Shown here piece after piece: positions 23,545 to 58,804 of a stretch of DNA of 64,000 bases (positions are counted from its first letter, which is position 1; every line of letters starts with the position of its first letter). Origin of the DNA: Escherichia coli (GTDB lineage: Bacteria; Pseudomonadota; Gammaproteobacteria; Enterobacterales; Enterobacteriaceae); assembly GCF_048403405.1 (NCBI RefSeq), contig NZ_CP183129.1; one strand, written 5' to 3'. The notes below the pieces were generated by a model that was not told where the DNA came from, did no database searches, and worked only from the letters and a program-made list of their open reading frames with translations. The translations under genes were made by a program, and so were the position numbers.

Positions 23545-23664
23545 ATGCCTGGCAGTTCCCTACTCTCGCATGGGGAGACCCCACACTACCATCGGCGCTA
23601 CGGCGTTTCACTTCTGAGTTCGGCATGGGGTCAGGTGGGACCACCGCGCTAAGGCCGCCAGGCA
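23545..23664 (-). rRNA. rrf: 5S ribosomal RNA
   Basis: 120 nt; reverse complement of ATGCCTGGCAGTTCCCTACTCTCGCATGGGGAGACCCCACACTACCATCGGCGCTACGGCG... matches E. coli 5S. Confidence 0.95.
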
Positions 23665-23758
23665 AATTCTGTTTTATTAACCCGCTTGTCGCCGGTTAAT
23701 TTAATCTGTATCAGGCTGAAAATCTTCTCTCAATCCGCCAAAACAGCTTCGGCGTTGT

Positions 23759-26662
<2,904 letters not shown>

Positions 26663-26855
26663 TCACAACCCGAAGATGTTTCTTTCGATCCATCATCGTG
26701 TTGCGAAAATTTGAGAGACTCACGAACAACTTTCGTTGTTCAGTGTTTCAATTTTCAGCTTGATCCAGATTTTTAAAGAGCAAATATCTCAAACATCACC
26801 CGAAGATGAGTTTTGAGATATTAAGGTCGGCGACTTTCACTCACAAACCAGCAAG

Positions 26856-26931
26856 TGGCGTCCCCTAGGGGATTCGAACCCCTGTTACCGCCGTGAAAGG
26901 GCGGTGTCCTGGGCCTCTAGACGAAGGGGAC
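26856..26931 (-). tRNA. gltV: tRNA-Glu (UUC) in the 16S-23S spacer
   Basis: 76-nt match to E. coli tRNA-Glu (GTCCCCTTCGTCTAGAGGCCCAGGACACCGCCCTTTCACGGCGGTAACAGGGGTTCGAATCCCCTAGGGGACGCCA) as reverse complement. Confidence 0.95.
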
Positions 26932-27015
26932 GTATCAGTCTGCTTCGCAAGACGCCTTGCTTTTCACTTTCTATCAGACAATCTGTGTGAGCACTGCAAA
27001 GCACAGTTCTTTAAG

Positions 27016-28558
<1,543 letters not shown>

Positions 28559-29050: not shown

Positions 29051-29066
29051 GCGCAAACGTTTTCGT
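29051..29066 (+). promoter_or_regulatory. PurR operator (pur box) in the purHD promoter
   Basis: GCGCAAACGTTTTCGT matches the pur-box consensus ACGCAAACGTTTNCNT; about 110 bp upstream of the purH ATG. Confidence 0.6.
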
Positions 29067-29173
29067 TACAATGCGGGCGAAAAATAAGGATGCCCCGTTA
29101 GGGGCGTTAGCTGAGTTTTTCGCGAAAAATTCAGCTAACGCTCTCTGTAATAGTCAAATCCAGGGGATTTACC

Positions 29174-30763
29174 ATGCAACAACGTCGTCCAGTCCGCCGC
29201 GCTCTGCTCAGTGTTTCTGACAAAGCCGGTATCGTCGAATTCGCCCAGGCACTTTCCGCACGCGGTGTGGAGCTGCTGTCTACAGGGGGCACTGCCCGTC
29301 TGTTAGCAGAAAAAGGTCTGCCGGTAACCGAAGTTTCCGATTACACCGGTTTCCCGGAGATGATGGATGGACGCGTGAAGACCCTGCATCCGAAAGTACA
29401 TGGTGGCATTCTGGGCCGTCGCGGCCAGGACGATGCCATTATGGAAGAACATCAGATCCAGCCTATCGATATGGTGGTTGTTAACCTGTATCCGTTCGCC
29501 CAGACCGTTGCCCGTGAAGGTTGCTCGCTGGAAGATGCGGTTGAGAACATCGATATCGGCGGCCCAACGATGGTGCGCTCCGCCGCCAAGAACCATAAAG
29601 ATGTCGCAATCGTGGTGAAGAGCAGCGACTACGACGCCATTATTAAAGAGATGGATGCCAACGAAGGATCGCTGACGCTTGCAACCCGTTTCGACCTTGC
29701 CATCAAAGCCTTCGAACACACTGCCGCCTACGACAGCATGATTGCCAACTACTTCGGCAGCATGGTTCCGGCTTACCACGGTGAAAGCAAAGAAGCCGCC
29801 GGTCGCTTCCCACGCACGCTGAACCTGAACTTCATTAAGAAGCAGGATATGCGTTACGGCGAGAACAGCCACCAGCAGGCTGCCTTCTATATAGAAGAGA
29901 ATGTGAAAGAAGCCTCCGTTGCTACTGCAACCCAGGTTCAGGGTAAAGCCCTCTCTTATAACAACATCGCCGACACCGATGCGGCGCTGGAGTGCGTGAA
30001 AGAGTTCGCCGAGCCGGCATGTGTGATTGTGAAGCACGCCAACCCTTGCGGCGTGGCTATCGGCAATTCCATTCTTGATGCTTACGATCGCGCGTACAAA
30101 ACCGACCCGACCTCCGCATTCGGCGGCATCATTGCCTTTAACCGCGAGCTGGATGCGGAAACCGCACAGGCCATCATTTCTCGTCAGTTTGTTGAAGTGA
30201 TCATTGCGCCATCCGCCAGCGAAGAAGCCCTGAAAATCACCGCCGCCAAACAGAACGTGCGCGTCCTGACCTGCGGTCAGTGGGGCGAGCGTGTTCCGGG
30301 CCTTGATTTCAAACGCGTGAACGGCGGTCTGCTGGTTCAGGATCGAGACCTGGGGATGGTCGGTGCAGAAGAACTGCGCGTCGTCACCAAACGTCAGCCG
30401 ACCGAACAGGAACTGCGTGATGCGCTGTTCTGCTGGAAAGTGGCGAAGTTCGTGAAATCCAATGCTATCGTCTATGCCAAAAACAATATGACCATCGGGA
30501 TTGGCGCGGGCCAGATGAGCCGCGTGTACTCCGCAAAAATCGCCGGTATTAAAGCTGCCGATGAAGGTCTGGAAGTGAAAGGTTCCTCGATGGCTTCTGA
30601 CGCGTTCTTCCCGTTCCGCGACGGTATTGATGCCGCCGCCGCTGCGGGCGTGACCTGCGTAATCCAGCCTGGCGGTTCTATCCGTGATGACGAAGTGATT
30701 GCCGCCGCCGACGAGCACGGTATTGCAATGCTCTTCACCGACATGCGCCACTTCCGCCATTAA
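29174..30763 (+). CDS. purH: Bifunctional AICAR transformylase / IMP cyclohydrolase
   Basis: 529 aa, [41 protein letters not shown]... Confidence 0.95.
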
Positions 30764-30774
30764 TGGAGCAATAG

Positions 30775-32064
30775 ATGAAAGTATTAGTGATTGGTAACGG
30801 CGGGCGCGAGCACGCGCTGGCCTGGAAAGCGGCCCAGTCGCCGCTGGTTGAAACTGTTTTTGTTGCTCCGGGTAACGCAGGCACTGCGCTGGAGCCTGCA
30901 CTGCAAAACGTCGCTATCGGCGTAACCGATATCCCGGCGCTGCTGGATTTCGCGCAAAACGAAAAGATCGATCTAACCATCGTCGGCCCGGAAGCGCCGC
31001 TGGTGAAAGGCGTGGTGGATACCTTCCGCGCCGCCGGGCTGAAAATCTTCGGCCCAACCGCAGGTGCCGCGCAGCTGGAAGGCTCGAAAGCGTTTACCAA
31101 GGATTTCCTGGCCCGCCATCAGATCCCTACGGCGGAATACCAGAACTTCACCGAGGTAGAACCTGCGCTGGCGTATCTGCGTGAGAAAGGCGCGCCGATC
31201 GTCATTAAAGCTGACGGTCTGGCAGCGGGTAAAGGCGTTATCGTCGCGATGACGCTGGAAGAAGCCGAAGCGGCTGTTCACGATATGCTGGCGGGCAACG
31301 CTTTTGGCGATGCGGGTCATCGCATTGTTATCGAAGAGTTCCTCGACGGCGAAGAAGCGAGCTTTATCGTGATGGTGGACGGCGAGCATGTGCTGCCGAT
31401 GGCCACCAGTCAGGACCACAAACGCGTAGGTGATAAAGATACCGGACCGAACACCGGCGGGATGGGGGCTTACTCCCCTGCGCCAGTGGTGACCGATGGG
31501 GTTCATCAGCGCACCATGGAACGTATCATCTGGCCAACCGTGAAAGGTATGGCAGCGGAAGGCAACACCTACACTGGTTTTCTCTACGCGGGCCTGATGA
31601 TCGACAAACAGGGCAATCCGAAGGTTATTGAATTTAACTGCCGCTTTGGCGATCCGGAAACCCAGCCGATTATGCTGCGCATGAAGTCCGATCTGGTTGA
31701 GCTCTGCCTGGCGGCCTGTGAAGGCAAGCTGGACGAGAAAACGTCCGAGTGGGATGAACGCGCTTCTCTCGGCGTGGTGATGGCTGCGGGTGGATATCCG
31801 GGCGATTACCGCACCGGCGATGTGATCCACGGCCTGCCGCTGGAAGAAGTGTCTGACGGCAAAGTGTTCCACGCGGGCACAAAACTGGCGGATGACGAGC
31901 AGGTGGTAACCAGCGGCGGGCGCGTACTGTGCGTCACCGCGCTGGGTCATACCGTGGCAGAAGCGCAGAAACGCGCTTATGCCTTAATGACCGATATCCA
32001 TTGGGACGACTGCTTCTGCCGGAAAGATATCGGCTGGCGCGCTATCGAACGCGAGCAGAACTAA
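30775..32064 (+). CDS. purD: Phosphoribosylamine-glycine ligase (GAR synthetase)
   Basis: 429 aa, MKVLVIGNGGREHALAWKAAQSPLVETVFVAPGNAGTA...; ATP-grasp. Confidence 0.95.
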   Translation: MKVLVIGNGGREHALAWKAAQSPLVETVFVAPGNAGTALEPALQNVAIGVTDIPALLDFAQNEKIDLTIVGPEAPLVKGVVDTFRAAGLKIFGPTAGAAQLEGSKAFTKDFLARHQIPTAEYQNFTEVEPALAYLREKGAPIVIKADGLAAGKGVIVAMTLEEAEAAVHDMLAGNAFGDAGHRIVIEEFLDGEEASFIVMVDGEHVLPMATSQDHKRVGDKDTGPNTGGMGAYSPAPVVTDGVHQRTMERIIWPTVKGMAAEGNTYTGFLYAGLMIDKQGNPKVIEFNCRFGDPETQPIMLRMKSDLVELCLAACEGKLDEKTSEWDERASLGVVMAAGGYPGDYRTGDVIHGLPLEEVSDGKVFHAGTKLADDEQVVTSGGRVLCVTALGHTVAEAQKRAYALMTDIHWDDCFCRKDIGWRAIEREQN

Positions 32065-58575: not shown

Positions 58576-58747
58576 AAACCAACCTGTCAGAAGTATTCTA
58601 CAAACATTTTCACCCCGCGATCGCGAGGCAAACCAAATCGAAACGCGTATTAGCTTTTCGGATTATACGCCCTCAACAGAGCCTGTCTCAGCAATGATTA
58701 TGACAAAGAAAATCACTGATGAGCCAGGTTCTGGTACGAAAGCGTGC

Positions 58748-58775
58748 AAAAAGGGCATCAAATGATGCCCTTTTA
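58748..58775 (-). terminator. Rho-independent terminator downstream of tufB
   Basis: Minus-strand hairpin AAGGGCATCATTTGATGCCCTT followed by TTTGCACGC. Confidence 0.6.
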
Positions 58776-58804
58776 GTGCGCATTGCGTCAAATGTTATCG
58801 GCAA

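Follow-up and report, generated by a model that had tools for sequence, protein, structure and literature searches.

Introduction

The purHD operon is a textbook operon, and its control has so far been described via DNA-binding proteins only. Its product PurH consumes AICAR/ZMP and 10-formyl-tetrahydrofolate and also recycles the AICAR that stems from histidine biosynthesis, and the level of the enzyme may need control beyond purine repression. The alarmone ZTP was first described in enterobacteria, and to our knowledge enterobacteria are without a ZTP riboswitch. Among folate-dependent enzymes, thymidylate synthase, DHFR and SHMT are reported to bind their own mRNAs. With regard to DNA-binding proteins, a 2024 review of purine regulation names PurR and RbsR as the only regulators of purHD, and RegulonDB-derived tables give RbsR and PhoP besides PurR.

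Here we turn to the interval between the PurR operator and the start codon of purH in E. coli, which lies in a window of 64 kb (the whole stretch of DNA analyzed, 64,000 nucleotides) and contains a near-perfect 38-bp palindrome together with an adjacent short hairpin, below referred to as H2 and H1. We conclude, with a probability of roughly 85%, that the palindrome encodes a selected RNA structure of the purHD mRNA leader.

Two adjacent hairpins in the purH leader

The region from the PUR box to the start of purH is identical to that of K-12 MG1655, and a 321-bp query around the palindrome matches 5419 of 5426 complete E. coli genomes, with B2-type strains at 100% identity; the K-12 RefSeq record carries no annotation in the purH–rrsE interval. 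The purH coding sequence (29174–30763, + strand), which is given by the list of open reading frames and by the RefSeq annotation of the identical K-12 region, is followed on its 3′ side by purD (30775–32064). A complete rRNA operon (5S, 23S, tRNA and 16S; 23547–28558, with leader and promoters reaching to ~28912) is located on the minus strand and is divergent from purHD. This divergent rrn–purHD arrangement seems conserved over Enterobacterales (loci L015, L024, L030, L031 and L041); matches to the rrn-leader (Ysr197 model) occur upstream of purH on the opposite strand, and most assemblies end 250–700 nt upstream of purH.

The PurR operator (PUR box, GCGCAAACGTTTTCGT; 29051–29066, without strand assignment) is, in reverse complement, the PurR site published for purHD, ACGAAAACGTTTGCGC, which confirms the box as placed by the original prediction, and the purH ATG at 29174 is likewise right. 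The box also contains the core AAACGTTT reported for RbsR and is retained in all Enterobacterales loci compared. A −10 hexamer, TACAAT (29067–29072, + strand), is predicted from its position and its conservation: TACAAT, TAAAAT or TAGAAT is found immediately 3′ of the PUR box in every Enterobacterales purH locus compared. From this conserved hexamer beside the PurR box we infer that transcription starts near 29079/29080 and that H1 and H2 lie within the transcript, at about +14 to +63 of a leader of ~95 nt. The 5′ end of this leader (GAAAAAUAAGGAU; 29079–29091, + strand) is A-rich and is predicted by folding to be single-stranded, its first 9 nt being unpaired with a probability of about 1.0; it contains a GGA, and its sequence differs among genera. 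Two side observations concern the same segment. A direct repeat, GCGAAAAAT, occurs at 29077–29085 and 29121–29129; the first of the two copies, located where the transcript is predicted to begin, is the complement of UUUUUCGC (29116–29123) in the left arm of H2. Moreover, a mini-ORF, AUG CCC CGU UAG (29090–29101), begins inside AAGGAUG and overlaps H1; GAUGCCCC is found again in several genera, the reading frame and stop codon of the mini-ORF being not conserved.

H1 (29092–29105, + strand; GCCCCGTTAGGGGC) is a 5-bp GC hairpin, GCCCC-GUUA-GGGGC, which reaches −10.0 kcal/mol alone and whose 5′ arm is a C-run and whose 3′ arm is a G-run. H2 (29104–29141, + strand) is the 38-nt palindrome itself, which shares the two bases 29104–29105 with H1 and pairs 29104–29120 with 29125–29141 around a CGCG loop (29121–29124); its conserved base corresponds to GCGUUAGCUGA / UCAGCUAACGC. 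On the DNA level, the dyad GCGTTAGCTGAGTTTTTCG/CGAAAAATTCAGCTAACGC consists of 19-nt arms that are 95% complementary and have zero spacer, it is the best inverted repeat within the window, and none of 100 dinucleotide shuffles gave a match to it. The second-best inverted repeat, at 58739–58784, has 22-nt arms of 82% complementarity and a 2-nt spacer (AAAGCGTGCAAAAAGGGCATCA / TGATGCCCTTTTAGTGCGCATT). The lone mismatch of H2, G29115 versus T29130, forms a G·U wobble in RNA of the + strand, with a mismatched A·C at this position of the minus strand. Thus, the short element at 29092–29105 and the 38-bp dyad with one mismatch at 29104–29141 are both as originally described; the 9-bp stem with a self-complementary loop that had been assigned to the dyad has to be replaced, as folding yields an uninterrupted 17-bp stem with a CGCG tetraloop and base-pair probabilities near 1.0. 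Folding of the leader RNA, which had been suggested as a check, gives −39.7 kcal/mol compared to −23.6 ± 3.0 kcal/mol in shuffles (z = −5.3) and hence speaks in favor of structure.

H2 is followed by a pyrimidine tract, UCUCUG (29142–29147, + strand), which we delimited by the invariance of its UCU and by folding. Nucleotides 29143–29147 of this tract can pair with 29099–29103, lengthening H2 at the expense of H1: the H1 state has −29.7 kcal/mol, the H2-extension state −28.8 kcal/mol. Further downstream, folding predicts a local hairpin, AAAUCC-AGG-GGAUUU (29156–29170, + strand), that contains the purH Shine–Dalgarno sequence GGGGA (29163–29167). Its pair probability in E. coli is about 0.58, 97.9% of its cells are paired in 16 Enterobacteriaceae without any covariation, and it is missing from Erwiniaceae and Yersiniaceae.

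Conservation and compensatory changes of the helix base

For comparison we collected the purH loci of 80 species. About 30 Enterobacterales purH leaders retain both H1 and the H2 base, and the refutation that would follow from a lack of conservation in related genomes fails. H1 is directly followed by H2 in all Enterobacteriaceae and also in Erwinia, Pantoea, Serratia, Yersinia, Rahnella and Brenneria; H1 is located just 5′ of H2 in most taxa, its loop is variable, and its stem displays one compensatory change (GCCUC/GAGGU in Enterobacter sp. Bisph1) as well as several G·U changes. The conserved base of H2 reads GCGUUAnCUGA...UCAnnUAACGC, while loop and apex are not conserved: The 38-nt forms carry the loops CGCG, AGCC, ACGC, UUGGG, ACGAG, AGAG and UAGUG, and the length of the stem-loop ranges from 38 to 88 nt across taxa, with 49–88 nt in other genera.

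The paired state of this base is maintained by covariation. In an alignment of 16 H2 basal pairs from 20 distinct species, from which the apex had been trimmed, 86.9% of the cells are paired and double changes occur at 9 pairs; none of 500 shuffles was as good, and controls in which the partner strand had been slid gave 29–40% paired cells. A set of 26 sequences, which includes two Morganellaceae and six metagenome leaders, yields 88.8% paired cells over 12 basal pairs, with double changes at 7 of the 12; the metagenome leaders come from an unspecific pattern scan, in which 6 of 80 loci were real leaders. Position 8 of the stem is occupied by C-G, A-U, U-A and G-C as well as by C·C and C·U intermediates: E. 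coli has C-G, Citrobacter and Enterobacter have C·C or C·U, and the metagenome leaders have A-U or G-C.

The non-Watson–Crick positions of H2, read on the + strand, comprise 20 G·U and 6 A·C, and the + strand hairpin is more stable than the minus-strand form in 20 of 25 taxa. This G·U bias and the greater stability of the + strand form argue that the structure of H2 is selected in the purH-sense RNA. Within H2, invariance at the level of sequence is found for A6, A11, U27 and a GUUA:UAAC core, and the UCU that follows H2 is invariant in Enterobacteriaceae, Erwiniaceae, Yersiniaceae and Pectobacteriaceae; on the 5′ side of H2, the flanking G-run belongs to the conserved part as well. Of the two options that had been offered for the dyad, the RNA regulatory structure therefore stands with respect to its structural part, for which covariation, G·U bias, variable apex and conservation speak; its regulatory part is a putative one. 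Among the Enterobacterales compared, the H1/H2 motif was not found in Rosenbergiella, Budvicia, Edwardsiella and two symbionts of insects, Arsenophonus nasoniae and Pantoea sp. Nvir, and its absence from some members of the order means that H1/H2 are not indispensable.

Two further observations relate to the apex. In Photorhabdus caribbeanensis (L030, purH at 613) the leader has 254 nt, about 120 nt of which are inserted in the apex of the H2 equivalent; this insert, which we take to resemble an ERIC/IRU-type repeat, is a natural experiment according to which the H2 apex tolerates large insertions. Moreover, the apex of the long forms repeatedly carries a small palindrome of the CUCUAUAUAGAGAG type in Yersinia, Serratia, Rahnella, Pantoea, Erwinia and Edwardsiella (loci L021, L024, L026, L027, L020, L018 and L054; two copies in Serratia species), which is presumably too short for the NrdR box consensus.

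A single-copy element of purH

Of 5426 complete E. coli genomes, 5419 carry the H1/H2 element, which in 5332 of these 5419 is at least 99% identical over 67 nt. BLAST finds one H1/H2 locus per E. coli genome, a second match being that of the palindrome on itself, on both strands. In line with this, a covariance model built from 16 Enterobacteriaceae purH leaders has one match in the window (E = 5.6e-25), the other match being the mirror image of the palindrome, and among the loci searched it gave no match outside Enterobacterales or outside purH leaders. A dispersed palindromic repeat (REP/BIME, ERIC, MITEs) or a mobile element can consequently be dismissed, as the element is single-copy in 5419 genomes and has one covariance-model match; nor does the K-12 annotation give H2 as a plasmid or repeat feature.

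The element is also restricted with respect to the regulon. Of the nine pur-regulon leaders of K-12 that we compared (purH, purM, purL, purE, purC, cvpA-purF, purT, purA and guaB), only that of purH has strong structure downstream of the PUR box (z = −5.7), and H1/H2 are found in none of the other eight. The signal seen in the purC leader resembles, by eye, a REP-type hairpin located farther upstream. The combination found here, a covariation-supported 5′ UTR structure tied to one gene, is one of the features expected of a cis-regulatory leader and makes H1/H2 a candidate for such an element.

A cmscan search against Rfam 15 (E ≤ 1) returned nothing in 29051–29176 or in 20 orthologous or related loci, the matches near the purH leader being confined to rRNA, tRNA and rrn-leader. 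In the literature searched, the H1/H2 sequence was not found in print, and nothing on H1/H2 was found in work on the purHD leader, attenuators, RNase III, Term-seq or ZTP. As far as checked, H1/H2 are undescribed.

Possible roles of the structure

We tentatively suggest, at somewhat less than even odds, that H1/H2 constitute a static cis-element of the purHD mRNA and that a factor specific for double strands recognizes its helix base and thereby determines the fate of the mRNA. According to this proposal, which draws on comparative sequence analysis, H1 and H2 would fold upon transcription and persist in the mature mRNA without any switching. The conserved helix base of H2, i.e., the GUUA:UAAC core, the GC clamp and the UCU flank, would then be recognized by a double-strand-specific trans-factor, for which an RNase III-type cleavage activity or a protecting or repressing RNA-binding protein would be candidates. 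Such reading would set half-life and output of the purHD mRNA independently of the control of initiation by PurR. The fixed GUUA:UAAC core, A6, A11, U27 and UCU flank amid covarying neighbors point to a recognition of the helix base, and no conserved pairing alternative to H1/H2 was found. Part of the sequence conservation in the stem can come simply from the requirement for double mutations.

With respect to cleavage by RNase III, the H2 duplex of E. coli has 17 uninterrupted base pairs, or ~22 bp with its G·U-rich extension, and thereby reaches the duplex length of ~20 bp or more that serves as a criterion for this enzyme; the orthologous stem-loops are interrupted and extend up to 88 nt. 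RNase III has been found to be selective in vivo, where its substrates carry a specific pair pattern. Among the cleavage sites read from the lists of Gordon et al. 2017 there is none in the purH leader; in the growth medium of that study, purHD was presumably repressed.

A passive role of the structure is conceivable, though in our estimation unlikely. H1–H2 keep ~50 of 95 untranslated nucleotides double-stranded and might in this way limit Rho loading, access of endonucleases or R-loops in a leader that adjoins a very strongly transcribed divergent rRNA operon. The high stability of the hairpin and the irrelevance of its apex would fit this explanation, as would the conserved divergent rrn–purHD arrangement over Enterobacterales, the finding that purH alone among nine pur leaders has such a hairpin, and the unrelated long hairpins in some purH leaders of Vibrionaceae and Aeromonadaceae. 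However, no rRNA operon was seen upstream of those Vibrionaceae and Aeromonadaceae loci that have leader hairpins, the 13-nt single-stranded 5′ end stays exposed, and the fixed GUUA:UAAC, A6, A11 and UCU flank are left unexplained while other stem pairs covary. If H1/H2 were a passive structural or stability element only, we would be dealing with an ordinary 5′ UTR hairpin, though an unusually well conserved one.

The hairpins outside Enterobacterales deserve a description of their own. Long stable leader hairpins are located downstream of a PurR-like box in Grimontia (L046), Photobacterium (L057) and Aliivibrio (L040), and similar purH leader hairpins occur in Oceanisphaera (L043) and a MAG (L032), where no box was detected. 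All five lie ~35–95 nt upstream of purH, are unrelated to H2 in sequence and have no U tail; those of Grimontia and Oceanisphaera have UUUGGYAAAG...CUUUURCCAAA in common, in which a compensatory change is seen. Of all 80 purH upstream regions, 31 have a folding z < −2.

Distinctly less probable to us is an attenuator, in which H2 and its pyrimidine-rich tail would lower the read-through into purH, either as an intrinsic terminator that is leaky or as a hairpin-dependent pause site. The pattern of conservation would be compatible with it, as the helix base is GC-rich, the apex free and the UCU invariant; the next 10 nt contain 5–7 U in Erwiniaceae, Yersiniaceae and Brenneria (e.g., UCUUUUAUUG, UCUUAUUUAU), and one premature terminator has been predicted upstream of Aeromonas hydrophila purH in a published survey. 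In E. coli, however, the tail UCUCUGUAAU falls short of a simple U-tract criterion, namely a GC-rich stem immediately followed by a U tract with at least 5 U in 8: UCUCUGUA has 4 U in 8, and the terminator scan made no + strand call. No 3′ end within or close to the 5′ UTR of purH is given in the K-12 Term-seq tables of Adams et al. 2021, which cover LB and M63-glucose; their supplements have no purH entry and none at 42075xx–42076xx. This absence of a 3′ end from the leader argues against a terminator, and attenuation, for which Term-seq had been proposed as a check, finds no backing in these tables. The attenuator is further weakened by the fact that we found neither a conserved antiterminator pairing nor a leader peptide: The possible pairing GCGAAAAA/UUUUUCGC is not conserved in other genera, and the mini-ORF AUG CCC CGU UAG was rejected as a leader peptide because it is not conserved among genera. 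In addition, no U tails accompany the purH leader hairpins of other gamma-proteobacteria, and by eye no consensus pause signal was seen downstream of H2. On the minus strand, the scan called H1 as terminator-like; this call was discarded as well, since no minus-strand promoter was found, no 3′ end is listed at this place and the U-rich flank is not conserved.

We consider it quite doubtful that the leader acts as a translational switch, whereby the UCU tract would capture the G-run of H1 in the extension of H2 and the freed C-run of H1 would block the purH Shine–Dalgarno sequence. In its favor, energy minimization yields the switch fold for E. coli and several further taxa, RNAalifold arrives at it as the consensus of 16 Enterobacteriaceae, the energies of the two states are almost equal, and the C-run-5′/G-run-3′ orientation is conserved together with the UCU tract. 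Nevertheless, opening of the ribosome binding site costs 7.4 kcal/mol versus 6.8–6.9 kcal/mol without H1 and H2, which is only ~0.5 lower (25 taxa), and the 5′ region and the ribosome binding site are no more complementary to each other than dinucleotide-shuffled sequences are (mean z = −0.12; none significant, n = 31). Moreover, the sole double change seen favors H1 and breaks the extension. A riboswitch was rejected on separate grounds, as there is no conserved ligand pocket and the internal mismatches of other genera are Watson–Crick pairs in E. coli. The same applies to CsrA sites (AAGGAUG and the Shine–Dalgarno GGA), since the upstream GGA is lost in many genera; a CLIP link between purH and CsrA was not found in the literature.

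The conserved helix base of H2, together with H1 and the UCU flank, might be a candidate operator of a dedicated RNA-binding regulator, maybe PurH itself, by analogy with the folate-dependent enzymes mentioned above, or a ZMP/AICAR- or folate-responsive factor, which we rate as very improbable. If it were true, AICAR or one-carbon status would be linked to purHD expression at the RNA level despite the missing ZTP riboswitch.

The least credible explanation is a DNA element, either an operator at which a dimeric transcription factor would act as a roadblock (+25 to +62), or cruciform DNA taking up the supercoils that arise from the divergent rrnE promoters: The E. coli dyad is near perfect with an A/T-rich center, and non-PurR regulators (RbsR, PhoP) are given for purHD in RegulonDB-derived tables, but the center of the dyad is its least conserved part, the distance between the arms differs by 50 nt over the taxa, the palindrome is imperfect in many orthologues because of G·T positions, by which the DNA or minus-strand form alone is weakened, and the RbsR core AAACGTTT sits in the PUR box and not in the palindrome. 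A dimeric site needs fixed spacing and a conserved center, and the operator reading of H2 fails for this reason; the option of a dimeric protein-binding site that had been raised alongside the RNA structure thus finds no support in view of the variable spacing (38–88 nt), the unconserved center and the lack of a AAACGTTT core in H2. A second PurR/RbsR operator in H2 was ruled out by the same lack of the core and the variable spacing. We also rejected a second promoter at CTGTAATAG, which had been suggested by its likeness to the guaB −10 region, as the hexamer is not conserved in other genera. The likeness itself concerns the predicted −10 region TTACGCTCTGTATAATG of K-12 guaB (L209), which resembles purH CTAACGCTCTCTGTAATAG just after H2 (29137–29153); it is probably fortuitous, since other genera do not retain the purH hexamer as a −10 element.

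Returning to the selected RNA structure in the leader, a conserved structure that is unique to purH among the pur leaders compared would imply a layer of post-initiation control of purHD that was previously undescribed. If regulatory, H1/H2 would show how enterobacterial PurH is tuned beyond purine repression, and purH, which in other phyla is under the control of the ZTP riboswitch, would gain a further curated RNA family.

Comparison with known systems

The H1/H2 leader shares features with several described systems and differs from each of them. Like the operators of the LacI family (PurR and RbsR boxes), H2 is palindromic as DNA, has a central CG and is part of the purHD control region; in contrast to them, it has no AAACGTTT core, its half-arms are at least 14 bp apart at variable distance, and its center is unconserved. 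With the ZTP riboswitch (pfl motif) H1/H2 share the context, i.e., the 5′ UTR of purH, whereas they have no Rfam match, no pseudoknot of the kind that joins the two subdomains of the riboswitch, and no conserved unpaired nucleotides. The attenuators of pyrBI and pyrE resemble the purH leader in that an operon for nucleotide biosynthesis has, in its leader, a stable GC-based hairpin with a tract rich in pyrimidines or U on its 3′ side; the purH leader differs by having neither a leader peptide nor an antiterminator, a weak U tract in E. coli and no Term-seq 3′ end. The pnp and rnc leaders, which are processed by RNase III, likewise present a long near-perfect duplex of about two helical turns in the 5′ UTR upstream of the ribosome binding site, and the orthologous purH hairpins have internal mismatches; as a difference, no purH cleavage is among the listed sites read. 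Finally, the ompA-type stabilizer and the start-site-dependent hairpins of pyrC and pyrD are, like H1/H2, hairpins in enterobacterial 5′ UTRs, where they act in cis on mRNA fate or translation; in comparison, H1/H2 begin ~14 nt from the predicted 5′ end, and H2 excludes the Shine–Dalgarno sequence.
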